DNA from: Escherichia coli
Lineage (GTDB): Bacteria; Pseudomonadota; Gammaproteobacteria; Enterobacterales; Enterobacteriaceae
Reading direction: 5' to 3' (one strand)
Assembly: GCF_050320075.1 (NCBI RefSeq)
Contig: NZ_CP190018.1
Length of the DNA: 64,000 bases
Shown here: positions 12,857 through 49,813 of the stretch, in pieces
Position numbering within the stretch: the stretch's first letter is position 1
Layout: every line of letters starts with the position of its first letter
Program-made: the position numbers and the translations under genes
Notes under the pieces: generated by a model
What the model saw: the letters and a program-made list of their open reading frames with translations, nothing else
Told to the model about the DNA's origin: nothing
Databases searched by the model: none

Positions 12857-12930
12857 GCGGGCGTAGTTCAATGGTAGAACGAGAGCTTCCCAAGCTCTAT
12901 ACGAGGGTTCGATTCCCTTCGCCCGCTCAA
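12857..12930 (+). tRNA. glyU: tRNA-Gly (anticodon CCC)
   Basis: GCGGGCGTAGTTCAATGGTAGAACGAGAGCTTCCCAAGCTCTATACGAGGGTTCGATTCCCTTCGCCCGCTC; acceptor stem pairs, anticodon loop CTTCCCAAG, T-loop GGTTCGATTCC; 3' end reads CAA rather than CCA. Confidence 0.9.
12913..12928. repeat. attL core: 16-bp direct repeat (tRNA-Gly 3' end)
   Basis: TTCCCTTCGCCCGCTC identical to 32061..32076. Confidence 0.7.
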
Positions 12931-13094
12931 AACAAACATTTCTCAACGTCTACTGAAGTCCATCAAATCCACGAATATCAAGCCTTTCAGCCATTTTCAT
13001 AGCTTATTAACGTCTACTCACAACTACCAGAATCTACACACAGAAGTGTATAGTAATGCGTATAGGACAAAATTTATTTTTTGGAGCTATACAC

Positions 13095-14309
13095 ATGCTG
13101 CTTTCAGACCTTGCTATCAGGCGCGCGAAGCCGAAAGAAAAGGCTTATACACTCAATGACGGTAACGGGCTTTCGTTACTCATTGAGCCGAACGGCTCGA
13201 AAGGGTGGCGACTACGTTACAGATTTGCAGGAAAGCCCAAAATGTTGTCGTTGGGCGTGTACCCTGATGTGTCTCTGTCTGATGCCAGAGCGGCAAGGGA
13301 TGAGGCTAAAAGGCTTCTTGCTGGTGGTATAAATCCAAGTGAGGCCAGAAAAGCTCAAAAGCGAGAACAGGCGAGCAAATTTGGCAATACTTTTGAGGGT
13401 ATCGCTCGCGAATGGTATGAAAAGCGGATCGACAGGTGGTCATCGTCATACGCCGAGGAAATGATCGAGACGTTTGAAAAAGACGTTTTTCCGTACATTG
13501 GCGGCAGGCCGATCGCAGAAATTAAGCCAATGGAGTTGCTTGCGGTTCTCTCCCGTCTTAATGACCGTGGGGCGACCGAAAAATTGCGTAAGGTTCGCCA
13601 GCGATGCGGCGAGGTGTTCCGGTACGCAATCATCACCGGACGCGCTGAATATAACCCCGCACCAGATCTGGCAAGCGCATTTGCTCCACACAAAAAAGAG
13701 CATTATGCCTATTTGAAGGCCGACGAACTGCCGGAATTTTTCCGCGTTCTTAATACGTACACCGGAAGCCAGATCGTCAAGCTGGGTATGCGATTATTGA
13801 TTCTGACAGGGCTCCGGCCAGGGGAATTACGACAGGCAGAATGGCAGGAGATCGATTTTGATAATCGTTTGTGGGAAGTGCCTAAAGAACGAATGAAGAT
13901 GCGCCGTCCTCATTGTGTGCCGCTTTCAGAACAGGCGATCGCTATTCTGGAACAGTTAAAACACATGACGGGGCAGTATCAGTTTATTTTCCCTGGTCGA
14001 ATCCAGCACAGTAAGCCGATGAGTGAAATGGCGATGAACGTGCTTATTCGTCGTATTGGCTATTCTGGGCGCGTTACTGGTCATGGGTTCCGGCACACGA
14101 TGAGCACGATTTTACATGAGCAGGGCTATAACACCGCGTGGATAGAAACGCAGCTTGCACACGTTGATAAGAACTCAATTCGTGGCACGTACAATCATGC
14201 GCAATATCTGGACGGGCGGCGCGAGATGCTCCAGTGGTACGCCGACTATATGGACTCACTGGAACAGGGCGGCAACGTGGTGCATGGCAAGTTCGGAAAA
14301 TGTGGATGA
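13095..14309 (+). CDS. tyrosine integrase, P4-type
   Basis: ORF 13056..14309; N-terminal LSDLAIRRAKPKEKAYTLNDGNGLSL and catalytic-domain HGFRHT ... Y residues typical of P4/CP4-57-like integrases. Confidence 0.85.
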   Translation: MLLSDLAIRRAKPKEKAYTLNDGNGLSLLIEPNGSKGWRLRYRFAGKPKMLSLGVYPDVSLSDARAARDEAKRLLAGGINPSEARKAQKREQASKFGNTFEGIAREWYEKRIDRWSSSYAEEMIETFEKDVFPYIGGRPIAEIKPMELLAVLSRLNDRGATEKLRKVRQRCGEVFRYAIITGRAEYNPAPDLASAFAPHKKEHYAYLKADELPEFFRVLNTYTGSQIVKLGMRLLILTGLRPGELRQAEWQEIDFDNRLWEVPKERMKMRRPHCVPLSEQAIAILEQLKHMTGQYQFIFPGRIQHSKPMSEMAMNVLIRRIGYSGRVTGHGFRHTMSTILHEQGYNTAWIETQLAHVDKNSIRGTYNHAQYLDGRREMLQWYADYMDSLEQGGNVVHGKFGKCG

Positions 14310-14431
14310 CTGGTTGAGTATACAGTAGTAGACTTTGAGCGACGAAAGAAAAAGCTGTGTCTAGGGTCGCTCCCGAAAAACCGTATACCTCGACGGGCTG
14401 GCACAGCCACTACAGTAGAGGACGCTGAGGT

Positions 14432-15235
14432 GTGCGTATGATTGATATTCATGCCGAATTAAACGAATACAAAAAAGATTTTATTTCTTTACGTGAATTT
14501 CTTGAGGTCGTGCTTAAGGTCGCTGGTGATGATTATGATGTTTCAGATCTCATAACTTGGATACTCAGGAGAATAAGCGGAGAACATATCCGCCTGTACA
14601 CAGTAAATGAATTTAAGCTGTTGGAATCTTTTTGTAACCCGTATCGGGATGAATTTGATTATGATGTTCTTTATAGAAATCTGGATGCGGTTCGGAAACA
14701 TGGTTGTTTACCTGGTGAGAGGGATGAAAATGGTTTTCTGGTGTCCGGTTATTGGGAAGATCCCGAATTTGAGAACATTGGATTTATAAGGGGTGAAATT
14801 TTCGCAATTTTTCCCGATGTCCTTGACGCGTTAACGAAGCTGGAAGGCGCTAACTCTTCTGAAAATGACGAGGTACAAGGACGCGATATTGAAAAGAAAG
14901 AGTTGCGTACAGAGGATGATTTATTATCCCAAATCGCAATGCTGGAAAGAGAAAACGCAGAGTTAAGGGCAAGGATAGAGCAGTTAGAGCAAGAGCGCCC
15001 GATACACTTATATAAATACTGGGATAAAGACCCATTAGCTAAGGCTATTGAGATTAGAAACAGAGAGTGGGCCAATTACGATCCAGAAAATGATTTTGCC
15101 ACCAGGGGAAATCAAGAAGCGATAACCAGGGAGCTTAAGCAGTGGGGGGCAAGTAATGCTCTTGCAACGCTCATAGAGAGGACTGCCTGCCCTATTAACC
15201 GAGACAACAGCCAAAAGAACGCAAAGCCGGATTAA
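14432..15235 (+). CDS. hypothetical protein (267 aa), acidic with coiled-coil segment
   Basis: Long ORF in AT-rich DNA between int and alpA; heptad-like LSQIAMLERENAELRARIEQLEQE; no family recognised. Confidence 0.5.
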   Translation: MRMIDIHAELNEYKKDFISLREFLEVVLKVAGDDYDVSDLITWILRRISGEHIRLYTVNEFKLLESFCNPYRDEFDYDVLYRNLDAVRKHGCLPGERDENGFLVSGYWEDPEFENIGFIRGEIFAIFPDVLDALTKLEGANSSENDEVQGRDIEKKELRTEDDLLSQIAMLERENAELRARIEQLEQERPIHLYKYWDKDPLAKAIEIRNREWANYDPENDFATRGNQEAITRELKQWGASNALATLIERTACPINRDNSQKNAKPD

Positions 15236-15248
15236 CGCACCATACCGC

Positions 15249-15399
15249 ATACCCTGAGGGTGATTTACTGTTACCCTGAGGGTATTTTTTTATCTTCCCC
15301 GTCAATTTTACCATCACCCTTAGGGTAGATTTCCTCCCGATTACCATCACCCTTAGGGTTAATTTCCTTCCGGTAACCATTAGGCCTGAGGGTATGAAA
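15249..15399. repeat. array of five palindromic ACCCT(G/T)AGGGT motifs (putative regulator binding sites)
   Basis: taccctgagggt x2, catcacccttagggt(a/t) x2 within a 33-bp direct repeat, ggcctgagggta; located just upstream of alpA. Confidence 0.6.
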
Positions 15400-15462
15400 A
15401 TATTCGTTATTTCTGTGCCATGATTACCTCGTCAAATTGAGTAGACGTTATGAGGTAAATAG

Positions 15463-15660
15463 ATGTCAAATACGCTTATTCGTTTAACAGAAGTTCAGCG
15501 TAGAACTGGATATAGCAAGGCATGGATTTATCGCCTTATGGGGCAAGGTAAATTTCCTGCATCAGTTAAAATTGGCTCGCGAGCGATTGCTTTCGTTGAA
15601 AGTGAAATTGACGAATGGATCAATCAGCGTATTGCCGAATCACGCGGAACGGCTGCCTGA
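15463..15660 (+). CDS. alpA: AlpA-family transcriptional regulator / excisionase-like (MerR-type HTH)
   Basis: 65 aa, LTEVQRRTGYSKAWIYRLMGQGKFP motif characteristic of AlpA/phage regulatory protein. Confidence 0.8.
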   Translation: MSNTLIRLTEVQRRTGYSKAWIYRLMGQGKFPASVKIGSRAIAFVESEIDEWINQRIAESRGTAA

Positions 15661-15735
15661 TTAAATAGCTACGGGTTATTGCCCAAGCTATCCACTAGCA
15701 AATAAAAAGTAACTTAATTCGATAGCGGAGTTTTT

Positions 15736-16560
15736 ATGAAACTGCGAAAAACGCCCGTACAGGGGCAGGGCTTTGTTCGGCCTGAAAACCAGAATCTGCA
15801 AAATTTCGGCGAAATTATCCCGGTTATTTCCGGCGTTATTGGCGGGCGTGAAGCCGCTGTTGTTAGCGCAAAAGCGTTACACAAAGCGTTGGGCGTGGGA
15901 AAAGACTTCTCTACATGGATCACTGATCGTATCTCTGAATATGACTTCACCATTGGGTACGATTACTCAGTCCATAAAACAATTTCCCCAAATTTGGGGA
16001 AAAGCCCGAATGGCGAGGCTTACAGCAAGATTAAGCACTCTGGCAGACCCGGTAAAGACTATCTGTTAAGTGTCGGAATGGCGAAAGAACTGGCAATGAT
16101 CGAACGCACCGAACAGGGCCGCGCCGTTCGTCAGTACTTCATCAAATGCGAGGAGGAGCTACACAAAGTAGCGCCAGTGCGTTCCGCAGCGTTACGCCGT
16201 GAACTGAAAGCCCGTATCACCGTTGCCAGCTACTTTAAGCCGATGTGTGCCGCGCTGGAGGCGTACCGCGCTGAACTGGGTAAAAACACGCTCCAGCACC
16301 ACTACACCACGGAAGCCAATATGCTGGCGCGTATCGTGCTGGGTGGCATGACTGCAAAACAGTGGGCGCAGGCGAACGGCATCACAGGCGAACCACGCGA
16401 CCACATGAGCACGCTGCAGCTTGAGCACCTTTCTTACCTTGAGCAGAGCAATATCACGCTGATTGAGTTAGGCCAGGACTACCACCAGCGGAAAGCTGAA
16501 TTAATTCGTCTTTCGCAACGCTGGTTAGCCCGCCGCATGGAGGTGAGCAGCCATGCGTAA
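15736..16560 (+). CDS. phage antirepressor-like protein (KilA-C-like domain), tentative
   Basis: 274 aa; position after alpA and adjacency to a Bro-N gene; domain call is from memory of motif content only. Confidence 0.45.
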   Translation: MKLRKTPVQGQGFVRPENQNLQNFGEIIPVISGVIGGREAAVVSAKALHKALGVGKDFSTWITDRISEYDFTIGYDYSVHKTISPNLGKSPNGEAYSKIKHSGRPGKDYLLSVGMAKELAMIERTEQGRAVRQYFIKCEEELHKVAPVRSAALRRELKARITVASYFKPMCAALEAYRAELGKNTLQHHYTTEANMLARIVLGGMTAKQWAQANGITGEPRDHMSTLQLEHLSYLEQSNITLIELGQDYHQRKAELIRLSQRWLARRMEVSSHA

Positions 16561-17110
16561 ACCTGTCTTTTATGCCGGGCGCACTGAAATCTCTGTCATT
16601 AAATTCGATGACATTCAGGTGCGCATAGTGAGTATCAACGGCGAGCCGTGGTTTGTTGGCGCTGATGTGTGTGCTGCGCTGGAAATCAGCAATGTTACTG
16701 ATGCTGTTTCAGTTCTGGATAACGACGAGGTAATGACCCTAGCTTTAACCGAGGGGCATTCCGGTAAGCGTGGTGGTGCCAGAAGCTGGAATGTTGTCTC
16801 TGAATCAGGTTTCTACAAACTGATCGCCCGCAGCCGTAAAGCTTCCACACCTGGCACATTTGCGCACCGTTTCAGTAACTGGGTATTCCGCGAGGTTATT
16901 CCTTCAATCCGCAAAACGGGGAGTTATGGTGTTCCGTTTGCCATGCTGAATGATTTCAGTAAACGCCAGGCTGCATATCAACAGGAAGCCAGCAAACGCG
17001 GTTACAGGTTACAGCAATGCAAAGAGGCAAAAGATGCACTGGAACGAGAAGAGCGGGCGCTATGGCGTAAATATCAGCCTGATTTTCTGGAGGGTGAAAG
17101 CAATGTGTAA
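16553..17110 (+). CDS. Bro-N domain protein (prophage antirepressor family), tentative
   Basis: 185 aa; N-terminal FxFxxxxVRxxxxxGEPWFV pattern typical of Bro-N; start overlaps previous stop. Confidence 0.5.
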   Translation: MRKPVFYAGRTEISVIKFDDIQVRIVSINGEPWFVGADVCAALEISNVTDAVSVLDNDEVMTLALTEGHSGKRGGARSWNVVSESGFYKLIARSRKASTPGTFAHRFSNWVFREVIPSIRKTGSYGVPFAMLNDFSKRQAAYQQEASKRGYRLQQCKEAKDALEREERALWRKYQPDFLEGESNV

Positions 17111-17278
17111 CGATCCGAACGTTACAGAAAGAAAAAGCGCCCCGTTGCTGGATAACAGGCAAAACAAAGGCGACCGGGATAGGTCGCCAGTGGGAACAAA
17201 GGAAATCAAACGCATCGCCAACAATGCCAGATTTGCGGCTGGTGGGCAATGTGATCAGTGTGCTGGCTTGCTGGTGGG

Positions 17279-17476
17279 CTATTCCTGCTCTTTAGCATCG
17301 CCATACTGCGATGTTTTCCAGGTATGCGATCCCATTTTTGTGCGCCTGTACTCTTTTAAGAACTTCTCAAGGACAAACGCACATGGTGCAAATCTTTCCT
17401 GTTCTTGTTCGCTTACCGCATTTTTGCGTTGTTTTTTCCTGGATGAGGATAATTTCTTTAATGATTTGTCAGTCAT
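17279..17476 (-). CDS. small basic protein, diverged paralogue of the adjacent 65-aa gene
   Basis: 65 aa; shares C-terminal ...AKEQE and upstream nucleotide similarity with 17534..17731. Confidence 0.3.
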   Translation of the reverse strand: MTDKSLKKLSSSRKKQRKNAVSEQEQERFAPCAFVLEKFLKEYRRTKMGSHTWKTSQYGDAKEQE

Positions 17477-17533
17477 CGTAGATACCTGTAACCCTGTGCG
17501 CCACAGTTCACCGCACCACGGCGCTGGTGATGG

Positions 17534-17731
17534 TTACTCCTGCTCTTTGGCCTTCCGGCGCTGTTCATATTTTAATTTGCGTCCACAGGCATCTAAGACC
17601 CATGCGGAAAAATTAGCACTAGGATTAGTTAATTTTTCTTGTTCAACACTGGCATCAATCCCATCTATAAGCTCGTGCGGGAATCGAATATTTTTCTTTG
17701 CTGATTTGTTGTTTGTGTTTCCGCTAGACAT
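17534..17731 (-). CDS. small DNA-binding-like protein (YlcI/YnfO-like, tentative)
   Basis: 65 aa; IRFPHELIDGIDA ... NFSAWVLDAC resembles small prophage regulators as I recall them; divergent from the rightward operon. Confidence 0.45.
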   Translation of the reverse strand: MSSGNTNNKSAKKNIRFPHELIDGIDASVEQEKLTNPSANFSAWVLDACGRKLKYEQRRKAKEQE

Positions 17732-17757
17732 TGGTACACCTCACTTAAATGGATTTG

Positions 17758-17841
17758 ATGGGCGCACACAATACAGCAAAAAAAGTGAGAAGTTAAGTAT
17801 TGACATGTGCGCACACATGATTTTAATCTGTGCGCACAGTT
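17758..17841. promoter_or_regulatory. three (T)GTGCGCACA palindromes overlapping a TTGACA -35 box (operator/promoter region)
   Basis: ggcgcacaca (17761), TTGACAtgtgcgcacacatg (17801), ctgtgcgcacag (17828). Confidence 0.5.
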
Positions 17842-18132
17842 TGGGTTGCATTGCTCAAATTAAGCAACGCCCCGCAGTGCTCGCAACACATGCAGGGCGT
17901 CTAACCACCAACGATAGAAAGCGTATCGAGGTAGCTATGTTAAATCATACCACACACCCGCAAGGGCGGGACTCGCACAACCTGAATAAATACATCTGGC
18001 GTTTTATCGCCCTGAGCACCGCACAACCACGCGTAATACACATCGAGGCCGCCAGCGAACAGGAAGCCCGTCAGCAATCCCCGGCTGGCTGCGTGATGGT
18101 ATTTACTGCCCGCATCCGTCAGGGGGAATACT

Positions 18133-18390
18133 ATGCGTGATGAACGATTTATTCTTCTGGAGCAAAAATTCAGTGAAGCGCCAAAAAATGAAATTGATGC
18201 TCTTTTGCATATCGCGAATATGCTAAAAGTAGCAACGTTCCTTATAGTTTCGAATCTGGAGCATGAAACGGCGTTAGATATACTGAACAGTGCTGTCGAT
18301 TATTCTGAATATATTGCCGAGGATAAATACAGGCAATTACCAGATTTGTTAGCCCATAAATATAAAGAAGAACCTCACACCGGGAAATAA
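18133..18390 (+). CDS. hypothetical protein (85 aa)
   Basis: ORF in operon context upstream of the replication protein. Confidence 0.4.
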   Translation: MRDERFILLEQKFSEAPKNEIDALLHIANMLKVATFLIVSNLEHETALDILNSAVDYSEYIAEDKYRQLPDLLAHKYKEEPHTGK

Positions 18391-18392
18391 AC

Positions 18393-18695
18393 ATGAAGAA
18401 GATTAAATTTACTGGCTTAAATGCCAGCGGACAGACTCACCCGAAAATCAGGATCGGGGATATTTTCCGGGATAAATATGGTGACAGCGTGGTTATTAAT
18501 TCCGTGTATGAACGGCACATTACATACCGCCGCGCAGGGTACGACTATGACTGTGTGATGCCCGTTCATCAGTTCCGGCGTGATTTTTCACTGGTATGTG
18601 CAGTACCACGCAGTAAGCCCACCAGTAAAGAGAAAGCACGGGCAAATATTCAGGTAATAAAGAACATGATTAACGCATTCAGGGGCAAGAAATGA
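18393..18695 (+). CDS. hypothetical protein (100 aa)
   Basis: ORF tightly spaced, its stop overlaps the next start. Confidence 0.4.
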   Translation: MKKIKFTGLNASGQTHPKIRIGDIFRDKYGDSVVINSVYERHITYRRAGYDYDCVMPVHQFRRDFSLVCAVPRSKPTSKEKARANIQVIKNMINAFRGKK

Positions 18696-27645: not shown

Positions 27646-30401
27646 TGAAACAGGCATGTGTTGAAGCTATTGCGCAGACACTTGGTCGCCAGCCAAAGGC
27701 TGATGAGCTGAAAAATATCGAAGATCGTATCAAAGAAGCAGTGCAACATGTGCACAGAAAGAATGCAAAAGAAGGCAAAAGTGGTATTCCTGATGCTCAA
27801 ACATACATGGATGCTGCAGAACTGGTACGCCAGCGTGTGGTTCATGATGTGTACAAGAAAAGACAGCGTGTTGCCCAGAATGCGATCGCCATCAGTAAAA
27901 TTACTGACACTCTCGATGCTAACATCCCGCCTGATCAGCAGACACCTGTTAATTTGCAGCAGTTTATTTTTGCTGGCCGACGATCGAGAGACAAAGCTGA
28001 TATCTCCGTTGCTTCTGCTGAAGAGCTTGCAATTGGGGCATATCAGGACTGGTCCCGTCAGCTCAGTGCTGAACTTCTAAAAGCAGGTGATGACGTCCGC
28101 AAATTCTTCGAGCAGAGCAGGGCGCTTGGAGAGCAGCGGTTTCGGAGTGTATTCGACAGGCAGGCGGCAAAGTCTGCACAACTCCAGATCCTGAAAGAAA
28201 TTTATGGCGAAGATACCGGGAATCCCCTGGCGAAGAAAATTGCACAGATTTGGAAGGATGTAACAGGCCGTGTTCGTCATGAGATGAACGACAACGGCTT
28301 TGACATAGGCCTGCGAGAAGACTGGCATACGCCATATGTGGATGATGCTGACCTTATTCGCAATGCCGGGCGCGAAGAATGGCTGGCATCGTTACCAGTG
28401 GCAGAGCAAGCTACAGCACGTCTTTCAGGTCGCCAGCCACCGATTGAGTTTGCCCGCCAGAAATGGGTTGATGACGCTTACAACACGCAGGATCGCAGCA
28501 ATTACGTTAATCCTGACGGCAGCATTATGAATGACGTCGAGTACCGTCAGGCACTGGAAGCGATCTTTGAAACGAAGGCCACTGATGGGGCAAACAAAAT
28601 TGAGCCCGGTACATTTATGGGAGCCGGAGGAATAAAGAGCCGTGGTTCTCAGCACAGGGGGATGGCGTTCAAGGATGCGCAGTCACACTTCGCCTATATG
28701 GAGCGATACACTCAGCAGCCGCTGGTGGGGGTGATGATGTCGCACCTGCAATCATCATCCAGGGATTTGGGCGTCGTTAAAGCCTTTGGTCCGGACGCCG
28801 AAAGAAACTTTTCCCTGGTACTGGATCGCATCTATAAGCGCGCAGTAACAGGCGGGAAACGCAAAAAAGAAATGGAGGATGAGGCCAAATTAGTAGCCCG
28901 TATGTTCAACTCAATGGCTGGCCTAAATGGTGTCGCTTCATCGAGTGTGTTCTCTTCAGCTGTTGGTGGTCTGCGTAACCTGATGACCAGCGCCATGCTT
29001 GGCACCAGCGTACTGACAGCAACCAGCGACCAGGCAATTATGCGGGCAAATGCGCAGGCGCTGGGCTTTACCCGTGGTGGAATGCGGCTTTCCGTTAACA
29101 CTATCAAAAACCTGTTTAGTGGAGATGCCAAAAAGGCGAATGCTGAACTCGGTCTGCTGGTGGATTCACATGCTGCTGTGGTTTCGAAAATGGGCGGGTT
29201 TGACTTGTCTCGCGGCATAACTGGCTGGTTCGCAGAGAAGACACTGAAGTGGTCCGGGCTGATCGCTATGGACCGCGCAAACAAAGCGTCGTTTGGTCTC
29301 CTGATGTACAAAAACATTGGCGAGCTGACCAGAAAATTTAAGACGCTGGACGATATGAAAGGAACCGATAAAACCATTCTGGCTAACAAGGGATGGAGCA
29401 ATGAGGACTGGGCCATCATGGCAGCGGCAGAACTCAGGCCGATGACTACTGCCGGGCATATGGGGATGACGCCAGACGCGATTTACGCTGTGCCCGATAA
29501 CGTAATCGCCGACATTATGGCAGACCGTATTACCCGGATTCGTGCCGGGAGTGAAAAGGCACTGGCAGCACTTGGAGATCTCCCTCCAGAACGCCTGAAA
29601 CGGATGAAAGAAGCATTCGACGCTGAGGCTGAGCAGACCATCACGCGCATGATTCGTAATGCACGCGCTGAAGCAGCCCATAAATTGCTGGGAATTACGC
29701 ACGGTGAGATGACCAATGCTGTGACCACCGCTACGGGTATTGATACATATGCCCGTGATGATGCTGGCGAGTTAATGAAGAGCTTCATGCTCTTCAAAAC
29801 AACCCCATTTGCTGGATTTCGGCAACTTGTTAACAGAACACGGGATTTGGACACCGTTCCGGCCATTAAATTTCTGGCCTCATATATCGGGGGAACAACT
29901 CTTGCTGGTATGTTTGCGATCCAGATGAACAGTTTGTTAAATGGTAATGATCCGCTGGATATGACAAAACCAACCACATGGGTTCAGGCTTTACTGAAAG
30001 GTGGTTCGTTCGGTATCTACGGTGATTTTATTTTCCAGGACCATACGCAATATGGCTCCAGCATCGGTGCCACTATGGGTGGCCCTGTGTTGAGCTTTGC
30101 AGAGCAGTTAACAAAATTACTGATTACTAACCCACAGAAGGCTCTACAGGGTGAAGAAACATCATTCGGTGCCGATGCACTGAAAACAGCCCGCATGATC
30201 ACCCCATTCGCAAACCTGTGGTATGCGAAAGCGATAACCAATCACCTGATATTGCAACAACTTCAGGAGATGGCAAACCCTGGTTACAATGATCGAGTAA
30301 GGGACCGCGCGCAACGGGAGTTCGACATAACGAGTTGGTGGGAACCGGGTGCTATTGCGCCACGTAGAGCACCGGATTTTGGAAAGGCGGTGGGGAACTG
30401 A
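27645..30401 (+). CDS. large hypothetical protein (about 918 aa)
   Basis: ATG at 27645 overlaps previous stop (TAATG); ORF track 27624..30401. Confidence 0.65.
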   Translation: MKQACVEAIAQTLGRQPKADELKNIEDRIKEAVQHVHRKNAKEGKSGIPDAQTYMDAAELVRQRVVHDVYKKRQRVAQNAIAISKITDTLDANIPPDQQTPVNLQQFIFAGRRSRDKADISVASAEELAIGAYQDWSRQLSAELLKAGDDVRKFFEQSRALGEQRFRSVFDRQAAKSAQLQILKEIYGEDTGNPLAKKIAQIWKDVTGRVRHEMNDNGFDIGLREDWHTPYVDDADLIRNAGREEWLASLPVAEQATARLSGRQPPIEFARQKWVDDAYNTQDRSNYVNPDGSIMNDVEYRQALEAIFETKATDGANKIEPGTFMGAGGIKSRGSQHRGMAFKDAQSHFAYMERYTQQPLVGVMMSHLQSSSRDLGVVKAFGPDAERNFSLVLDRIYKRAVTGGKRKKEMEDEAKLVARMFNSMAGLNGVASSSVFSSAVGGLRNLMTSAMLGTSVLTATSDQAIMRANAQALGFTRGGMRLSVNTIKNLFSGDAKKANAELGLLVDSHAAVVSKMGGFDLSRGITGWFAEKTLKWSGLIAMDRANKASFGLLMYKNIGELTRKFKTLDDMKGTDKTILANKGWSNEDWAIMAAAELRPMTTAGHMGMTPDAIYAVPDNVIADIMADRITRIRAGSEKALAALGDLPPERLKRMKEAFDAEAEQTITRMIRNARAEAAHKLLGITHGEMTNAVTTATGIDTYARDDAGELMKSFMLFKTTPFAGFRQLVNRTRDLDTVPAIKFLASYIGGTTLAGMFAIQMNSLLNGNDPLDMTKPTTWVQALLKGGSFGIYGDFIFQDHTQYGSSIGATMGGPVLSFAEQLTKLLITNPQKALQGEETSFGADALKTARMITPFANLWYAKAITNHLILQQLQEMANPGYNDRVRDRAQREFDITSWWEPGAIAPRRAPDFGKAVGN

Positions 30402-30715
30402 TGACGAGAGATAAAATTGAATATATTGCTTCTCTTAAATATGAAGCTGAGAAATGGAGAAGGATTGGCTGGTGGGGAACATTAATATCACTCTCTGCTT
30501 TACTTATAGACTCCTGGTTCAGACATATTGATGCAGCATCATTACTTTTTGAATCAGCAGTACTTGGTGGATTCATTTGCTGTTGGGGTGGTAATTATGA
30601 TCGGGCGTCCAAACATAAGAGAGAACTTGACGCGATATGTTTTGCTTTATTCGGTAAGGATTACGAAAGTTCTGACCTTGATATAATTGAATTCAACAAA
30701 ACGGAACTATCGTGA
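30401..30715 (+). CDS. small membrane protein (104 aa)
   Basis: Start overlaps previous stop (TGATG); two hydrophobic helices (WWGTLISLSALLI, AVLGGFICCWGG). Confidence 0.5.
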   Translation: MTRDKIEYIASLKYEAEKWRRIGWWGTLISLSALLIDSWFRHIDAASLLFESAVLGGFICCWGGNYDRASKHKRELDAICFALFGKDYESSDLDIIEFNKTELS

Positions 30716-30723
30716 CATGTCAC

Positions 30724-30749
30724 AGGCCGCTTTCGCGGCCTTGTTTTTA
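30724..30749 (+). terminator. intrinsic terminator ending the cargo operon
   Basis: AGGCCGCTTTCGCGGCCT followed by TGTTTTTA. Confidence 0.6.
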
Positions 30750-31417
30750 ACGAATGCCACCGCCGCCCGGGCGGGAATTCGCAGATAAAAAAGCACGCTG
30801 CACGGTTTTATTAATACTTATACCATTAGGATTGATCCTTCAATGGACAATCCTTCCATCGTGTGGCCAGCCATTCATATTCTTTGTCTTTTCTTCAGTA
30901 TCGGCTTTGCATCTTCTACACCCTGAAAGATGTCGTTTTATGGTGTATCTGATGATTTATTCCCTAACAATAGATATTCGAAAAATTAATCAGTTAAAAC
31001 AATTATTTGGATAATTTCAGGTAAAACTATCTTAATCTTCTGGTGGATCTCAATGCGTAGTGACGGTATCGGGATTAAGGGCGTGGATATTCGCGATATA
31101 TGCCGCTACACCCCTCAACAGTAATAGATATGAGCTTTTCACGCTCTCCTTTCACTGCTGAGAACGGCAACAACGTGCCACAGGAACGCGCTGTAATCGA
31201 TTCTGACGCACTTAATTGCGTTGGGTAATGGTTTTTGCCAGCCTGTGGGGGTAACTCTGTTTTATGAGGCTTTGGCTATAGTGCAAAAATACACTTTGTC
31301 TTGCCTCTCAATTTGATGAGACTGGAACGACAACAGGACAGACCACCAGCAACAGTTACCGTATTCAGCCGTTCTGTGGCACCAGTGGAACTATCAACCC
31401 CTGCTTTCAGAAATGTG

Positions 31418-31573
31418 TTTGCGGGTTATTTTGGGGCGTTTGCGGGTTATTTGGGATGTTTTGCGGGTTATGTGATGCTTGAATAATGAACAGTGTATTT
31501 TGCAACATATTGATACTAAAGAACAAAAAATAGTTAGAATACTAAGATAACCCGGTAACCCGCATAACCCGCA
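31418..31573. repeat. iteron cluster 2: three GTTTGCGGGTTAT and three TAACCCG(C/G)A copies flanking an AT-rich spacer
   Basis: gtttgcgggttatt x2, ttttgcgggttatg, then ataacccggtaacccgcataacccgca; same motif as cluster 1. Confidence 0.6.
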
Positions 31574-31978
31574 CTGTTTTGTATATATATACGAAAAATT
31601 GCATTCAGGAGGGGGGGAGCGAAATCCCTACAATCCATTGCTTATGGGACCGCCCGCCTCGTCAAATTTTTACACCCGCGAAATAAAAAAATACTTCACG
31701 CTGGTGGGCATGATGCTGATATGGGAGGCTTCCATAACGCCACCATTCGGAACTATGCAAATCTGCATAGAAAAGGGGATGCCTGATACAATACCCTCGC
31801 CCGATAAAATCACACCGATAAACTCATCTGCCACGAGTAGAAAGAGCGAACGAACCCGATACGCAGTAATGCTTGTCGGGTACAGCTTTTTAAGGCGGCT
31901 GTAGATATCAGGCCATCCGTGATCATCCACCAGCGAGATAGCCGATAACGATGACGCATAACCCTCAAGCGAGGGATA

Positions 31979-32003
31979 AATGTGTATAGAAATGTGTATA
32001 GAA
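31979..32003. repeat. tandem ATGTGTATAGAA repeats (candidate integrase arm-type sites)
   Basis: aatgtgtatagaa-atgtgtatagaa about 58 bp from attR; related gtgtatag / ctatacaca motifs near int at 13040-13092. Confidence 0.35.
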
Positions 32004-32060
32004 TTGATTTTAGAACTCGCAGGATTCGCGCTATTACTGGCCTTGTGTGATGTTGTATTG

Positions 32061-32076
32061 TTCCCTTCGCCCGCTC
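32061..32076. repeat. attR core: 16-bp direct repeat of the tRNA-Gly 3' end, followed by CA (intact CCA context)
   Basis: TTCCCTTCGCCCGCTC identical to 12913..12928. Confidence 0.7.
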
Positions 32077-32575
32077 CAGAATCTCCCCAGGTGGAGAAGA
32101 CTAAAAAAGTCTTCTCTGTCAGCAACTTAAACAGTTACCTATTTAATTTGCTTAGGAGTTCTACCATTGTGATCCGCCCTTAGTAACTGTCACGTTAAGT
32201 TACACGGTGAGATGACAGTATAACCTAACGTTGGCGGCAGTTGCACCTCTCACACCGCGATAGCACAACGTGAAGATAAAGCCCATCCTGGCATTGTAAT
32301 GTCATCGACAGACTGAACACACGCATTTAAGCCCGATGTGCGGCCTTGTGGCTGCGTAAACAGGTTTATGGTGATATTGGTCCTTGCAAACCATATGCAA
32401 GCTCTATCAGCGTTTCAGCCACGCTCCCAACGGGTACACGGTTATCCTGATAAGGTGTGATCTTTCTGACAATCTGATGAAGTCGCTACGCTCCCGCTTG
32501 TTGCTGTATCACCAACGGGGCTTTATGGTTTCTATTGTCTATAATAATCTCACAATTCCCCTGCATGAGGTTGAT

Positions 32576-32782
32576 ATGACTGTTAGCTACAAGATTACTT
32601 ATGAGCATAGAGACGGTGATCAAATTAGAATGGAAGAGGTTTTATTCCATTCAGAGCATGAACCAACAAAAGATGAAATTCATGATGCAGTAAGAAAAGA
32701 TACTGTGAGATTTAATTCTCCATCTAATGGAGTAACGGCTGTTTCAGGGTTTAAAGTGATTTCGGTTGTCCCTGTTCCATGA
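32576..32782 (+). CDS. small hypothetical protein (about 68 aa)
   Basis: ATG at 32576 preceded by GAGG; part of ORF 32384..32782. Confidence 0.35.
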   Translation: MTVSYKITYEHRDGDQIRMEEVLFHSEHEPTKDEIHDAVRKDTVRFNSPSNGVTAVSGFKVISVVPVP

Positions 32783-32815
32783 ATGGTTATAGAAGGGGCT
32801 GGAAGCCCCTAATTA

Positions 32816-33136
32816 TTACTTCTTAATATCGCCAGTGCATTGATATTCGATAGTCACAAGTGTTTGCATACAACCAGATGAAGAAGGTTGTGAACATTGA
32901 GAAGTGAATCCACCAAAAGGCTCGGCTCCTGAATATCCCCAAGCGGCACAACGCGCTTTGGCTGCATTCATGCCTTGTTGTGGATCTACAACAGGGCTTT
33001 CAAACATACCGTAAGAATAACTCATCCTAACTGTGCCGTCTGATTTGCTTCCACCAGTTGGAACGAGTTGTTTTTTTGTTGCACATCCAGAAATAATCAA
33101 TGTTGAAGCAAGTAACAGCATTAAACTTTTGCGCAT
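32816..33136 (-). CDS. putative lipoprotein
   Basis: Signal peptide and lipobox (LIISGCATK); 106 aa with several Cys. Confidence 0.5.
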   Translation of the reverse strand: MRKSLMLLLASTLIISGCATKKQLVPTGGSKSDGTVRMSYSYGMFESPVVDPQQGMNAAKARCAAWGYSGAEPFGGFTSQCSQPSSSGCMQTLVTIEYQCTGDIKK

Positions 33137-33280
33137 GTAAATAATCCCAAGAGATAATGGTTATGTATTGATTTAAAGCGTTTTTAGATTAATGCATTAA
33201 CTTAGCAAAATTAAGTCTTTTCTGATTGTTTGCAGAGTAAAAATGAGTTGCTTTCGAAATTATTTCGGATGTTTATTGTA

Positions 33281-33448
33281 TTACGGTTTTTCAAACCGTC
33301 TAACTATTGTCGCTATTGAATGGGCAATAATAGCAAGAGGATTCATTTCGTCATTGGAGGCAACAAAAAGTCGGTAACTAATAGCCACAACGAATGCAGC
33401 AATAACGAGAAAGCGGATAGTGCTAAGATGTTTTGAAGATAAATGCAT
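33281..33448 (-). CDS. small hydrophobic peptide (55 aa), speculative
   Basis: MHLSSKHLSTIRFLVIAAFVVAISYRLFVASNDEMNPLAIIAHSIATIVRRFEKP; below the ORF-track size cutoff, found by manual translation. Confidence 0.25.
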   Translation of the reverse strand: MHLSSKHLSTIRFLVIAAFVVAISYRLFVASNDEMNPLAIIAHSIATIVRRFEKP

Positions 33449-33788
33449 AACGCCCCCTAAATGAATGTGAGGGGGATTAAATCATGCAAATTTGTTATGT
33501 GCAATACTGGTAATTTATCCTAATAGTCTACTATTCACCTCAATCTACGTCAACCAATATTTGATGTAGATTTAATTTTCTTTTAAAAACAATATGTTGC
33601 AATTTGTTGGATTTTTGGGTTAGGTTGTTTTTTGAACGTTTCCATCAAGTGTAAAGATACGTTTAGCCTTCATAGTGAGTTCAGTTACTGTCTTTTTATC
33701 TGAAATCGGCGCAAACGTGATCATCGCTTAACGAGAAGATCAGCGCCGTCAGGTCCACGCGGCGACAACTCTGAAATATCAGGAGGCA

Positions 33789-34340
33789 TTACGCTTCCTG
33801 CTCTTTCTTGATACGTTGCACCGTCTGTGTGCTGACACTGAAATCTTTTGCTACGCTCCGAATTGATCCACCATTCGCGAGAGCGGCAGCAATTCCTGCT
33901 CGATCAATTGCTTTTCCATTACCACGTTTTGCTATACGTCCAGCGGCCTTAGCTGCGGCGATCCCTTCACGTTGACGCTCAAGCATCATTTCACGTTCCA
34001 TTTGTGCCACTGCTGCAAGCACTGTGAGCATCATATTCCCTGCGGGAGAGTTCTTCCCTGTCTTAAAGTCTTCTTTATGGAAATGCACAGACACGCCGCG
34101 CTCTGTTAATTGCTCAACCGTTGCCAGTAGGTCGGCTGTATTACGGCAAAGTCGATCAATGCTGTGAACATGCAAAACATCACCTTCCCGCACATAGTTC
34201 ATCATTGCCTCAAACTGTGGGCGCTGGGTATTTTTGCCTGACGCTTTATCTTCAAAGACTTTATCAAGAGTTACTCCAGCTAATTGACGGTCTGTGTTTT
34301 GTTGGACAGTCGATACCCTAATGTATCCAATATTAGCCAT
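33789..34340 (-). CDS. serine recombinase (resolvase / DNA-invertase family)
   Basis: N-terminal IGYIRVSTVQQNTDRQ with catalytic Ser; C-terminal HTH; ORF 33789..34346. Confidence 0.8.
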   Translation of the reverse strand: MANIGYIRVSTVQQNTDRQLAGVTLDKVFEDKASGKNTQRPQFEAMMNYVREGDVLHVHSIDRLCRNTADLLATVEQLTERGVSVHFHKEDFKTGKNSPAGNMMLTVLAAVAQMEREMMLERQREGIAAAKAAGRIAKRGNGKAIDRAGIAAALANGGSIRSVAKDFSVSTQTVQRIKKEQEA

Positions 34341-35267
34341 TTTCATTTTCCTTCTGTGTTGATTTGTGTGTAGTGATTATTGATCGTGTTGATTAGGTGT
34401 GTAAAGGACTTTTTTCACTACGAAATTCGAAGGTTTTTAGTGTGGTGATTTAGCCTGCTTTATCACTACACGTCTTGCATGAGAATCATGTAGTTACATT
34501 TTGGTAAAATTAGCAAGCTATTAAATAGTGTGTTTATTTTGAAAAAATAATTTTTTGTTGCATTAAAGGAAACTTGTTCAATAAATGATAGAACGTTTAT
34601 TGAGCAACAATTTTGCAGTGATGCGCTATATGCCGCATTACATAAGGCTTTGCTGATGATAATGTAAAAGTGAAGAAAGCTAACATTGCTCTTTTAAGCT
34701 ACTTTTCATTGAATTTTTAGTATGGAATTACATAGGGATAAACTATGAATATTCTATGATTTACACGAGATATTCTTGCTGTTTAATTCCGGCTTTGGAG
34801 ATCAGGCATTCGCAAGAATACGCTAACGCGTTGCCTGAAAAGCCATTGCACATAATAGAGGTGAGCGTATAGCGAACTATCAATGTGATCATTGCACGAA
34901 TGATAATGAGTGGATATAGATTCTATATATCGTTAGATTGTAGTTTGATAGTTAATGTGTAATGTAGATTGTATGAGCGTATAGCGAATGTTAGTTAGAT
35001 CAACAACAAACTAACCTTTAAATCTCTTTTATCTTCTCATAGATATGGCTATGCGTAGCAACCGAAGGTTAGCCAATCATCTCTATGCAGCCGTAAGGCT
35101 GTTTTGCATGTAATAGTTGTTTGTTGTTGTTAGACAGTTACCAATTTATAGATCAGAGATAGATGTGAGCGTTGAGCGATACACTAATCATAACAACATC
35201 TTCTTACTTTTTAGTTAGTTGTTAGTAGGTTATTGTTATGCGCGCTATTAGCGCATGTATAAAGGTA

Positions 35268-35370
35268 TCATTTTTATCTAAAGGGCTTTAGACATTTTTG
35301 ATACCTTTTTCATCTCTAAAAAAGTGTAATTTTTATCTAAAGGGGCTTTAGACATTTTTTACACCTTTTT
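35268..35370. repeat. two copies of an approximately 42-bp direct repeat
   Basis: atttttatctaaagggctttagacatttttgataccttttt and atttttatctaaaggggctttagacattttttacaccttttt. Confidence 0.6.
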
Positions 35371-35553
35371 CTGTGCAAGACACTTACCAGTGTGCACAAT
35401 ACTTATGCTTTTCTAAAGCCGGGAATTTTTAAGTTTGATTGATCAATTGTTAACTTTAAAAGTTACTTTTAACAATCACTTAGACGATCTAAAGCCGCAA
35501 TTAACATAATATAAGTTGACATGCAAGCACTTTTTACCGTATAGTGCGGGTTT

Positions 35554-35604
35554 CCTACCTACCCAGGAAATGAGTTCCTACCTACCCAGGAAATGAGTTC
35601 CTAC
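35554..35604. repeat. 23-bp tandem repeat, about 2.2 copies
   Basis: cctacctacccaggaaatgagtt x2 followed by partial cctaca. Confidence 0.65.
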
Positions 35605-36701
35605 AATACTATAATTAAACTACAATTAAACTATCTTTTATAAATTCTTTTATCTTTTAAAGAATAATTATAGGGATACCCGTTAGGGAGTCTTCGACTA
35701 TCCCTTAATCTATTGGCATTCGCCAGAACCTTGCACAAGTTAGACTGATGCTTGTCATAACAGATAGTTTTTGTTTTTTGTTAGTAGTTAGCTGATCTAT
35801 GTTCGCTTTCCGCTCACAACGAATATGTAATCTACTATGTGCAAATAGCCTACGGCTTGCGTATGGCTAATAGTCTTGCGCTGTGCGCAGAACGATAATT
35901 AACTAACTACCATCTAACGATTGAAATTTACTTGTGCAATAACCTGAGCATAAGCGAATGGTTGTTAGTGTCTATGCGCTGTGCGCTTCAATAGTTCCAT
36001 TGATGAGGCTTACGCCAATCTAACGATCATCAATCTATTTAAGAGAAAATCTATTGTGCAATACTCTGACGAGTGCAATAACCTTGTGTGCTACGCGTTA
36101 GCGATGTTAGCACATAGACACAGACAACAACCAACAACAAACAAAAAAGAAAGAATGGTTTTAGTAGTTGAAGGTTAAATAAGTTTCTACCGCTTAAATC
36201 AAGCCGTAGGCGAGCTAAACGTATATAAGGTAGGGAAACACTTAGCGGTAATAGATTAGCTCGTTATAGAGCTTCTGAGGAGCTTTACAGGTATTTTATA
36301 AGATGTCTGAAATCAGAGTTTATCTATCCACCATCTTTCCATCATCTGATAAATCAAAAATAAGCCCCTTAAATAAGCCTCTGACGAGATAAACAACCTC
36401 TACATAAGGGAATGTATTGTTTTTATCAAAACCCCCGTCAGAGTGCGATTGAGAGCGTTTTAGACAACAGGGAAGAATTGTACCAGAGTAGGCAGCACAA
36501 AAAGCTAAGAAAAATTATAAGAAATTGAAAATGATCAAGTTTTTTATAAAAGAGGGTTGACAAAGCCGCCGTTATGTAGTATTGTAAGTAGGGAGGGGAG
36601 AAACATCTCTCTCCATCTAAATAATCAAATCACAGAACACTGCACTTTGAGCCGTCAGGCTGCAAGGTGTGTTTTTCTTTTATCTAAATAAGGAGTTTTT
36701 T

Positions 36702-36884
36702 ATGAAATGGTATACACCGGAACACGTCGTAGAGGCATTTAAAAAAGGTGAGCTAACACGACATCAAGTAAGGATGAACAGGAACACAGCGCGGCGCTGT
36801 GGTTATCCAGAGCGTGAAAAATGCTTTGACGATGCACTAAAAATTATTGATGAACTGCGTAAGGCAGAAGCAGAGAAAGAATAA
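36702..36884 (+). CDS. small hypothetical protein (60 aa)
   Basis: ATG with AAGGAG 8 nt upstream; MKWYTPEHVVEAFKKGELTRHQ. Confidence 0.35.
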   Translation: MKWYTPEHVVEAFKKGELTRHQVRMNRNTARRCGYPEREKCFDDALKIIDELRKAEAEKE

Positions 36885-36907
36885 TAACAGGAGAAGGAGA
36901 AAACCAA

Positions 36908-37087
36908 ATGAATATTAATTTTGATTCTGCAACTTATAACGCGTTGTTAAATCGTGCAAAGGCAGAAGGGAAATCAATTCCAAAACTTGTTAATGAATTA
37001 CTAATTACAGTCCTTACAAAGGAGGAACTAAATGAACCAAAACACCAAAACAATTGCCGAAGCAAAAGCGCAATGCCTCAATAAGAA
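36908..37087 (+). CDS. small ribbon-helix-helix-like protein (about 59 aa), tentative
   Basis: Manual translation MNINFDSATYNALLNRAKAEGKSIPKLVNELL; GGAGAAAA upstream. Confidence 0.3.
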
Positions 37088-37697
37088 AGATAGTAAACAA
37101 ACATATGTAGTAGTTGAACAATGGCTGAAGATGTTTAAAAAGTGGTTCTCACCGTCAGGTAAGGAATACACCGCGACACTTCCAGCCGTTGAAATCTACA
37201 GTTACGTAGCTGGGTTCAATGAACAAGGGCAAGAATGTTACGCCAATCAAAAAACATTAGCTAATATTGGAATGGTTAGTGATCGTCAGGTGCGTAATAT
37301 TATAAATATGTTTATTGATATGGGTGTTCTTTCTGTAGAGGCACGGGACGGGCAAACATCACTCTATAAAGCATTACCCTTTACAGATGCACACATCACA
37401 CCACCGGAAGACGTAAAAACCTCTGTAAACGTAGAACAGCCTGCACCTGAAACACAGGAACCGTTAGAAGCGACACACTCTATTGAGCAGGAAACACAGG
37501 CAGAAATCACGGAACAATCTGATCTTTTTACATGGCTTATTTCCATAGACAGCCAAAAGCCTATGCAAGAAGAAACAGAAAATTTTATAAAACGTGCACT
37601 GACCTCGAAGAGGATAATTCTTGAAGATGATGCTTTTAATGCACTGATGATAGCCCTGAGAAAAGAAAGTGAAATCTATGACTCAATACCATTTTAA
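37032..37697 (+). CDS. hypothetical protein (221 aa), possible winged-helix DNA-binding / replication-initiator-like protein with acidic C-terminal half
   Basis: TLANIGMVSDRQVRNIINMFIDMGVL helix-turn-helix-like segment; functional call is weak. Confidence 0.35.
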   Translation: MNQNTKTIAEAKAQCLNKKDSKQTYVVVEQWLKMFKKWFSPSGKEYTATLPAVEIYSYVAGFNEQGQECYANQKTLANIGMVSDRQVRNIINMFIDMGVLSVEARDGQTSLYKALPFTDAHITPPEDVKTSVNVEQPAPETQEPLEATHSIEQETQAEITEQSDLFTWLISIDSQKPMQEETENFIKRALTSKRIILEDDAFNALMIALRKESEIYDSIPF

Positions 37698-37709
37698 GGA
37701 GAATAAAAA

Positions 37710-47716: not shown

Positions 47717-47935
47717 CTACCATTCCAGTTCATAGTAAGGAGAGATAGGATTATCTTTCGAATACATATCATTTTGAAAAGATGCCATCCATGTTGAAAC
47801 TATAAATGCTTGTATTTGATCTGTATCAGTAGTACTGGTGGTGATGTGTTTATCTAATGAAACGACTTCATCACCCGTTGCGGTTGCTATATTTAAACTT
47901 TGAGAAAAATTATTCATATTGATTGGATTAGTCAT
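47717..47935 (-). CDS. ygeI: small ETT2 protein
   Basis: 72-aa product MTNPINMNNFSQ...; position matches K-12 order as recalled. Confidence 0.6.
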   Translation of the reverse strand: MTNPINMNNFSQSLNIATATGDEVVSLDKHITTSTTDTDQIQAFIVSTWMASFQNDMYSKDNPISPYYELEW

Positions 47936-48102
47936 AAAATTCCCTTTTTTATTTGTCCAGGCCAATAGCCTATACACAATACTTTTTAATCTAGAGTATT
48001 TGATATATATTGCAATAAGGTAATTATCTTAGATGTTTTCATCTCTGTTGTTGACATAACCAGTTGCATACATCTAAACAATAAAATTGCGACAATAAAG
48101 AT

Positions 48103-49479: not shown

Positions 49480-49813
49480 TAGTTATCCTCTATGAAAAAA
49501 TTGGTTTCTTGCATCCTGCATAAGCAATAGAAATTGTGGCTATTCATATTTATGTGTCATTAATGCTACAGGAGTTTACATTCGACATATCTATGATTGT
49601 GTTCACTAATTTATCTTAGGAATTCAGTGATGTAATCTGAAATAGCCTTATTCAATTTTGATAAAATAGATTGTTCTCTAACGCGTTGAAAAATAGTAAT
49701 TTATAGTGTGTTCTTAACTGTTTTAAGATGTTGATTTAAGAAAACATAAGAGAAGCTGGTCATAGTGGTTAACTGCACTATAACCAGCAATTTTTACCAA
49801 ATGCTTGTAATGC

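Follow-up and report, generated by a model that had tools for sequence, protein, structure and literature searches.

A stretch of 64,000 nucleotides (nt) of Escherichia coli DNA, referred to below as the window and identical in sequence to strain YZLc1-3 (NZ_CP123240.1), was analyzed at the locus named by its flanking genes xdhABC, actS (ygeR) and glyU. It contains a 19.1-kb integrative element, labeled E1 (window 12913-32078), which carries three large genes related to internal virion protein genes of the podovirus epsilon15 and is considered here as a probable satellite of phages of the genus Uetakevirus. tRNA genes were called with ARAGORN and Rfam and protein families with PHROG, NCBIfam and Pfam, whereas PADLOC was used for defense systems; RefSeq annotation was consulted as well. 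Genome counts refer to a set of 5,426 complete E. coli genomes.

Ends of E1 and integration into glyU

A preliminary description of the window had proposed an integrative element delimited by a 16-bp direct repeat of a tRNA 3' end. This repeat, TTCCCTTCGCCCGCTC, was present exactly twice in the window, both times on the plus strand, at 12913-12928 and 32061-32076. No third copy was found in the window even when two mismatches were allowed, and none of 100 dinucleotide-preserving shuffles of the window contained two matches, in line with the earlier view that a chance match is unlikely. ARAGORN and Rfam placed the tRNA gene at 12857-12928, and the first copy of the repeat corresponds to its 3' end, as had been supposed. 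The att sites and the integrase module comprise the following features.

12857-12928, plus strand: tRNA-Gly(CCC) gene glyU, the integration target (ARAGORN; Rfam tRNA, 71.6 bits)
12913-12930, plus strand: attL core, 18 bp, with one mismatch to TTCCCTTCGCCCGCTCCA
12940-13054, plus strand: left attP arm with the short repeats AACGTCTACT at 12945 and 13009 and GTGTATAG at 13047, candidate arm-type Int/AlpA sites
13095-14309, plus strand: tyrosine integrase of the P4 family, 404 amino acids (aa) (PHROG 1, 5.9e-78)
14354-14421, plus strand: int-alpA RNA motif, Rfam RF02996 (46.9 bits, gathering score 35.8; E 8e-7)
14438-15235, plus strand: 265-aa coiled-coil protein within the swappable int module (only weak coiled-coil Pfam matches)
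15250-15396, plus strand: five palindromes ACCCT(G/T)AGGGT upstream of alpA, putatively operator-like
15463-15660, plus strand: AlpA/Vis-type excisionase-regulator (PHROG 2790 and 66; 37% identical to P4 Vis)
31936-32060, plus strand: right attP arm, present in the glyU-type int module only, with the tandem repeat AAATGTGTATAG twice at 31978-32001
32061-32078, plus strand: attR core with the 18-bp consensus, bearing the native CCA end of glyU

The functional att core comprises 18 bp, TTCCCTTCGCCCGCTCCA. Intact copies stand at attR (32061-32078), at the empty attB of E. coli O26:H11 and in a metagenomic attP. At attL the end of the core reads ...GCTCAAA instead of ...GCTCCAA (12926-12930), a C to A change at tRNA position 75. 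Since the same element in strain fS10a retains CCA at attL, the sequences indicate that glyU of the window no longer encodes CCA, owing to a point change. Without an encoded CCA, the tRNA-Gly(CCC) of the window would need CCA addition; in strain F11, the glyU tRNA measures 74 nt by RefSeq annotation.

From core to core E1 measures 19,148 bp. The whole element was found at glyU in 18 complete E. coli genomes including the window's own strain, and in the 17 other carriers the match to the window stops at 32078, so that the repeat does delimit an element of about 19.1 kb. No related genome was seen in which E1 had different ends, a finding that had been named beforehand as one that would speak against these boundaries. 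In fS10a, E1 is followed by ygeQ and secretion genes of ETT2, the type III secretion island at this locus, unlike the module that follows it in the window. The preliminary description had further suggested looking for the empty site in island-free genomes and for the attP junction of the circular form. The former was found in E. coli O26:H11 FWSEC0001, which lacks E1 and in which glyU, ending in ...GCTCCA, runs straight into the sequence found after attR in the window. The latter was found in a metagenome contig from a 95%-identical relative, Ga0209547_100127, where the int end is joined to the right end via a single 18-bp core: its int module, with 95% identity to window 12913-15899, is connected to 116 bp matching 31962-32078. 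The predicted attP junction (right arm-core-left arm) had no match in IMG/VR. Comparison of attL, attR, attB and attP revealed one core common to all four. It was through tyrosine-integrase recombination of the attP core TTCCCTTCGCCCGCTCCA with the identical tRNA sequence that E1 inserted at the 3' end of glyU, and attR retained the native end of the tRNA gene.

It had also been pointed out that the boundary would be in doubt if the repeat at 32061 lay inside a conserved gene. A hypothetical open reading frame (ORF) of 151 aa annotated in RefSeq (31670-32125, minus strand) does run across attR. We do not regard it as a conserved gene, because it spans the junction, has another length in another downstream context and gave no PHROG or PADLOC match.

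The integrase is tRNA-proximal and transcribed into the element, in the P4-type arrangement recognized earlier: the 404-aa ORF follows the tRNA after 167 bp on the same strand. Over 406 aa its identity to P4 Int is 38.7% (tblastn), and it scored 329 bits against the NCBIfam PRK09692 domain, under the cutoff of 434 bits. The 265-aa coiled-coil protein had no PHROG, NCBIfam or PADLOC match. Apart from the tRNA and the int-alpA motif, no RNA family was detected by Rfam between 12 and 47 kb of the window (E ≤ 0.1).

The limits of the integrase module follow from two kinds of relatives. Variants of the element located between yicC and dinD stop matching at 31935, and the metagenome attP contig matches 31962-32078. 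These limits define a glyU int/att module of about 3 kb in which 31936/31962-32078 is joined to 12931-15691/15899, and which is contiguous only in the circular form.

The gp15-gp16-gp17 cassette and the other genes of E1

The second half of E1 is dominated by a transcription unit whose large genes resemble those of Uetakeviruses.

22751-22957, plus strand: 68-aa ORF (phrog_4934), which opens the transcription unit of the cassette
23054-25585, plus strand: gp15-like internal virion protein, 843 aa, with a transglycosylase-type domain (PHROG 992, 1e-289)
25585-27645, plus strand: gp16-like internal virion protein (gp16L), 686 aa (PHROG 1145; BLASTP against epsilon15 gp16)
27645-30401, plus strand: gp17-like virion structural (core/ejection) protein (gp17L), 918 aa (PHROG 684, 6e-294; tblastn)
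30401-30785, plus strand: 104-aa ORF in the gp18 position, followed by a Uetakevirus-type terminator region (right homology arm; hairpin 30724-30741)

The amino acid identities to epsilon15 gp15, gp16 and gp17 are 79%, 68% and 89%, respectively, with conserved gene order and gene lengths of 2532, 2061 and 2757 nt compared to 2529, 1905 and 2757 nt in the phage. Similarity to the phages begins 10 nt before the gp15 start codon and stops at the late-operon terminator. The neighboring phage genes gp11-gp14 are not present beside the cassette in E1. In epsilon15 and phiV10, the gp15-17 genes come after the tubular tail genes and the gene for a T7-gp14-family core protein. Because of this position and the transglycosylase-type domain, the gp15-17-like proteins are assigned, by position and content, as predicted internal core (ejection) proteins. 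The 104-aa ORF, which shares 81% amino acid identity with the ORF after gp17 in a prophage of Ca. Erwinia dacicola, has a sequence suggestive of a small membrane protein.

Relative to epsilon15, the central segment of gp16L is replaced (nt 26354-27054, about aa 265-480, or some 215 residues). The replacement is AT-richer, contains an HEALH motif and is kept among the satellite copies. No Pfam, PDB-sequence or word-indexed protein-search match was obtained for this domain, and among 1.84 billion representative proteins just one 74-aa fragment matched it. A single-sequence AlphaFold model had a predicted confidence (pLDDT) of 53.7 and was too poor to use. The idea that the domain could be a zincin has the HEALH motif as its sole basis.

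The cassette is selectively maintained and not decaying, because its ORFs are intact in all copies examined, the ratio of nonsynonymous to synonymous substitution rates against epsilon15 is low (0.045-0.12, with 0.045 for gp17), and changes among the satellite copies are mostly synonymous, with small counts of 15-17 synonymous to 1 nonsynonymous for gp16L and 15 to 3 for gp17L.

The segment from the primase gene to gp17 was found in 36 of the 5,426 genomes, as was the epsilon15-type gp16-17 pair. Given these equal counts, the satellite context is the only one in which this cassette type occurs in complete E. coli genomes (36/36 occurrences). Three epsilon15-type loci of Pseudocitrobacter, Ca. 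Erwinia dacicola and Buttiauxella, retrieved in a gp17L scan, turned out to be ordinary prophages with gp11-gp14 upstream and not satellites. A satellite-specific 51-mer matched two IMG/VR contigs, whose names resemble those of provirus predictions in isolate genomes and which were not used as evidence for encapsidation.

The family proved modular at both ends. The E1 cargo (window 15692-31935) is also found between yicC and dinD with 98-99% identity; in these variants a different integrase, accessory gene and alpA stand ahead of the shared cargo. They are flanked only by a 12-bp repeat, GGTGTACATAAT, located about 70 bp upstream of the integrase, a candidate att core for the yicC-dinD integrase. 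The metagenome contig Ga0209547_100127 (372-8807) in turn combines the glyU int/att module with a different cargo, in which phrog_2850 is a primase-helicase of 470 aa and phrog_7694 a protein of 680 aa that has a domain of the injection-transglycosylase type. The glyU-type integrase module may be paired with phage DNA-injection proteins more generally.

The cassette itself was also found to be exchangeable. Strain F11 harbors this element at glyU, but a phiV10-type cassette (2514, 1803 and 2475 nt) takes the place of the epsilon15-type one and shares 91%, 97.5% and 99.2% amino acid identity with phiV10 p18-p20. Over 7.6 kb the F11 copy is 96.9% identical to a phiV10-type prophage of another strain, and the endpoints of the exchange lie in conserved flanks, the 5' part of gp15 and the terminator region. 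At the level of sequence, this documents that cassettes have been exchanged with Uetakeviruses through the conserved flanks.

The remaining genes of E1 lie mostly between the integrase module and the cassette.

15736-16560, plus strand: AntA/AntB antirepressor-type gene (PHROG anti-repressor families; RefSeq)
16553-17110, plus strand: BRO-N antirepressor-type gene (PHROG anti-repressor families; RefSeq)
17279-17476, minus strand: phrog_21027, small divergent gene
17534-17731, minus strand: YlcI/YnfO, small divergent gene
17937-18140, plus strand: Icd-like gene (NCBIfam phage_ICD_like, 68.6 bits)
region 17937-18695, plus strand: 85-aa ORF and DUF4222 gene, after the Icd-like gene
18692-20818, plus strand: DUF927 primase-helicase, 708 aa, replication protein (PHROG 1139 "DNA primase", 6e-174; Pfam DUF927, 1.6e-46)
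21029-21454, plus strand: SSB
21491-21988, plus strand: ProQ/FinO-family protein
within 21969-22645, plus strand: 138-aa Ant-like ORF
22394-22619, plus strand: PerC-like gene, annotated as frameshifted
22624-22645, plus strand: strong terminator-like hairpin
31417-31598, plus strand: three iterons GTTTGCGGGTTAT spaced by 21 bp, with inverted copies and an AT-rich palindrome, a putative replication origin

The 138-aa ORF gave the only terminase match in E1, a weak and partial one (2e-10 over 64 residues); Pfam scans of this ORF and of the 265-aa ORF were uninformative. The PerC-family gene was annotated with a frameshift in each of the five family members looked at (YZLc1-3, fS10a, PU-1, MS 196-1 and F11) and is either an old passenger pseudogene or a recoded gene. 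Despite the Icd-like gene, no C4/CI-type immunity RNA was found in the Rfam scan. Of ten E1 proteins scanned with PADLOC, one matched, namely AntA/AntB with the candidate family PDC-S22 (E 8e-10 over 84 residues); the cassette proteins and the other unknown proteins had no match to a defense model.

The second glyU element beyond attR

The DNA downstream of attR had been described as a second foreign module. This was borne out: 32079-45441 is a separate 13.4-kb element of about 37% GC, present in 34 of the 5,426 genomes including O26:H11 strains, where it is core-flanked, with one core copy at glyU and the other 13.5 kb away, within a 22-bp stretch of identity just outside the integrase.

32079-45441, plus strand: second, unrelated glyU element, whose distal att repeat is lost in the window
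44280-45455, minus strand: inward-facing integrase of the second element, at its tRNA-distal end
45442-46209 (approximate), plus strand: IS1, truncating this integrase and abutting an ETT2 remnant (match to other genomes ends at 45441; RefSeq IS1B transposase)

The second element encodes a DNA invertase, a Rep-like protein, an HK97-type major capsid protein (phrog_29) and a tape-measure-like protein of 613 aa; it may represent a further satellite-like element. Its integrase is about 23% identical to that of E1. IS1 has removed its distal repeat in the window. Within it, 34347-36700 is a 2.4-kb region without any ORF above 71 aa that is kept in other carriers; it gave no Rfam or phage database match and contains a 23-bp tandem repeat at 35552-35604.

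ETT2 has been published as an island adjacent to glyU (PMC2808357, PMC4313913). An assignment of the region beyond attR to the ETT2 backbone was considered and rejected, as ETT2 begins only after IS1, with a remnant at 46400-55100 (ygeK, pbl, ygeH, ygeG and yqeH-K next to IS1, and further on yqeF). An IS200/IS605 tnpA lies between araE and ygeA at about 61230-61690. E1 thus shares its tRNA locus with ETT2, but the latter is an old, immobile type III secretion island, whereas E1 and its 13.4-kb neighbor are recent integrase-borne insertions flanked by cores. With two unrelated integrases using overlapping cores on top of an older island, glyU is the serially used hotspot that the preliminary description had taken it for.

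Putative Uetakevirus helpers, known satellites and competing explanations

Co-occurrence with Uetakevirus prophages was analyzed using a chimeric query composed of the satellite gp16L-17L and the phiV10 portal-to-capsid region. The Uetakevirus portal-capsid region was present in 25 of 36 E1 carriers (69%) and in 523 of 5,390 other genomes (10%), corresponding to an odds ratio of 21 (Fisher p 1.6e-17, with genomes counted as independent). YZLc1-3 itself contains a complete 39.3-kb Uetakevirus prophage between guaA and yfgI (NZ_CP123240.1 1462891-1502168). Its cassette is of a third type (2622, 1698 and 2550 nt), unlike those of epsilon15 and phiV10; Uetakevirus ejection cassettes therefore fall into at least three highly divergent types, set between flanks that are conserved. 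E1 and this prophage share only the stretches 23043-23472 (95%) and 30711-30785 (97%). The former is the left homology arm, comprising the first ~430 nt of gp15, and about 230 aa of the gp15 N-terminus are conserved, whereas gp16 showed no detectable similarity and gp17 is 22% identical. In AH19D088, the co-resident prophage has a phiV10-type cassette. No carrier had three places matching the chimeric query, and there is therefore no co-resident prophage with the satellite's own cassette type.

E1 would need a helper for transfer because genes for capsid, portal, terminase, tail and lysis are missing from it. In this respect it resembles P4, which likewise has its own large primase-helicase and iterons and lacks capsid, tail and lysis genes. 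Int belongs to the same family (38.7% amino acid identity) and adjoins a tRNA with a duplicated 3' end, and the Vis/AlpA proteins are 37% identical. Beyond this the two differ. E1 is 19 kb long compared to ~10-11 kb for P4, and it carries podovirus ejection proteins where P4 has myovirus capsid-size determinants. Homologs of alpha, epsilon, sid, delta, psu and the cI region were not found in a tblastn search of P4 proteins against E1 (E ≤ 0.01), in which the DUF927 protein showed no similarity to alpha. The DUF927 and Ant/BRO proteins may supply functions analogous to those of alpha and epsilon, and the antirepressor-type genes could play the part of the latter. Only two of the seven components that SatelliteFinder takes as the core of a P4-like satellite are present (PMC10085698).

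With PICIs and cfPICIs, E1 shares the order int-alpA-primase/replicase. From the five core components in the PICI definition (PMC10085698), an integrase, an AlpA-type regulator and a primase-replicase are found in E1, but a PHROG search of all ORFs revealed neither a small terminase nor a capsid-morphogenesis gene (Ppi/Rpp-type), and the three virion core genes depart from a definition without other phage structural genes. Like cfPICIs, E1 encodes phage-homologous virion proteins rather than relying wholly on its helper; capsid, portal, protease, head-tail adaptor/connector and terL, which belong to the 11 core components of cfPICIs (PMC10085698), were not found. The DUF927-SSB module also occurs in E. 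coli beside ClpP/major-capsid fusion genes, in elements judged cfPICI-like by their annotation alone. Compared with Uetakeviruses, whose gp15-17 (epsilon15) or p18-p20 (phiV10) have the same order, similar lengths and the same downstream terminator, the E1 cassette lies outside a prophage, without gp11-gp14 and behind primase, SSB and ProQ genes, and the central domain of gp16L is replaced. Uetakevirus prophages can themselves be mis-called as PICIs (PMC10121019). Judged by its gene content, E1 appears to work like a satellite yet fits none of the four families whose definitions were checked. According to published descriptions, P4-like satellites, PICIs, cfPICIs and PLEs take over capsid size, packaging specificity or the entire capsid (PMC10085698); a literature search that did not extend to subscription journals yielded no report of satellites with ejection or internal virion proteins, or of satellites tied to Uetakevirus or epsilon15.

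We favor the explanation, with a probability of roughly 0.6, that E1 is a satellite that exploits Uetakevirus phages and supplies ejection proteins of its own, because the cassette is kept and has been exchanged with phages, the family is modular, Uetakevirus prophages co-occur with it, its DUF927-SSB module is related to that of other satellite-like elements, and Int, AlpA and the int-alpA RNA motif are found in it. Excision by Int and AlpA would give a circle, which would be replicated by the DUF927 primase-helicase, probably from the iterons at 31.4-31.6 kb. The best candidate for the helper role is a temperate Uetakevirus podovirus of the epsilon15/phiV10 group, which the antirepressor genes might derepress, by analogy with the action of P4 epsilon on P2. 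E1 would then be packaged in helper capsids, possibly as a dimer (2 x 19.1 kb, close to the 39.3 kb of the helper), with its own ejection proteins loaded via the conserved gp15 N-terminus. Such particles could deliver E1 DNA by an entry apparatus unlike the helper's, for instance past entry blocks in lysogens.

Several observations weigh against this proposal. Excision and induction of this copy of E1, and its presence in particles, are predictions from sequence. The attP contig derives from a relative that is 95% identical and has other cargo, and the same junction could arise from a tandem array. The co-occurrence count is uncorrected for clonality, and the carriers include several near-identical strains. 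The prophage gp16-17 type differs from that of E1 in each of the 25 genomes that hold both, which fits the proposal but would also fit the lack of any functional link. A sigma-70 promoter could not be detected ahead of the cassette. In E1 no gene for a small terminase turned up, and comparison of E1 with epsilon15, phiV10 and the resident prophage (blastn with word size 7, tblastx and exact k-mers of at least 14 nt) gave no pac- or cos-like similarity, so that packaging is where the proposal is weakest; beyond the cassette flanks, only a weak BRO-N match and distant integrase similarity were obtained. The cos of P2/P4 (first 12 nt) is not in the window. As to size, two units of 19.1 kb would nearly fill a head dimensioned for a 39.3-kb prophage, an agreement that could be coincidence.

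The simplest alternative is an inert mosaic, in which a P4-type tRNA island captured a fragment of an epsilon15-like prophage, the virion genes are functionless and the element rarely or never moves. Its rarity (36 of 5,426 genomes), the frameshifted PerC-like gene in each copy examined and the failure to find a packaging function or structural genes beyond the three core proteins would all be expected of such a relic. A relic would hardly, however, keep some 7.3 kb of large ORFs (843, 686 and 918 aa) intact in all copies, with mostly synonymous changes among them, nor would it be expected that the cassette runs exactly from the start codon to the terminator, that the same cargo occurs with two integrase modules at two chromosomal sites, or that at least one cassette has recently been replaced. 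Together these objections point to a functioning, selected unit, and we therefore regard the inert mosaic as unlikely.

Similarly unlikely in our view is a primary role in interference or defense, whereby the E1 ejection proteins would co-assemble into Uetakevirus capsids and render them non-infective, or would block superinfection, to the benefit of the host or of E1. The difference in cassette type between satellite and co-resident prophage in all co-occurring genomes would suit such a role, as would the conservation of only the first ~230 aa of gp15 between E1 and the resident prophage and the orphan HEALH insert of gp16L, which is not in epsilon15; known satellites, moreover, often disturb helper assembly (PMC10085698). 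The cassette, however, matched no PADLOC defense model, and the F11 cassette, being nearly identical to those of phiV10-type phages, would not poison them. Interference does not exclude the satellite explanation and is compatible with it.

Genes for SSB and ProQ/FinO proteins are common in the leading and regulatory regions of conjugative plasmids. That E1, which encodes both and in which no packaging function was found, is an integrative mobilizable element transferred by conjugation via a co-resident plasmid or integrative and conjugative element, its phage genes being incidental, is nevertheless very improbable, as the annotated and PHROG-scanned genes include no relaxase, coupling protein, type IV secretion system gene or recognizable oriT, the replication module is common to the ClpP/major-capsid-fusion elements, and the co-occurrence with a single phage genus is strong.

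A satellite of Uetakeviruses with its own ejection proteins thus remains our preferred explanation. A more far-reaching version, according to which E1 represents an undescribed satellite family parasitizing Uetakeviruses with a swappable ejectosome, docking via the gp15 N-terminus, an orphan HEALH domain, a bypass of entry exclusion and a role as cassette reservoir for the phages, is put forward tentatively, and the odds are somewhat against it in this full form.

The tRNA-island part of the locus is routine but unusually complete, with attL, attR, attB and attP and with two elements in tandem at one tRNA. The point of interest is the cargo, ejection proteins in a satellite-like element. Elements of ~19 kb such as E1 are likely missed or rejected by current satellite finders. 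If the proteins are loaded into helper capsids, they would add a new layer to the conflict between satellites and helpers, the control of DNA entry. E1 would then offer a natural system for studying the recruitment of podovirus ejection proteins, with a conserved N-terminal docking part and variable modules, and would explain how divergent ejection cassettes move among Uetakeviruses infecting Salmonella, Enterobacter and E. coli.

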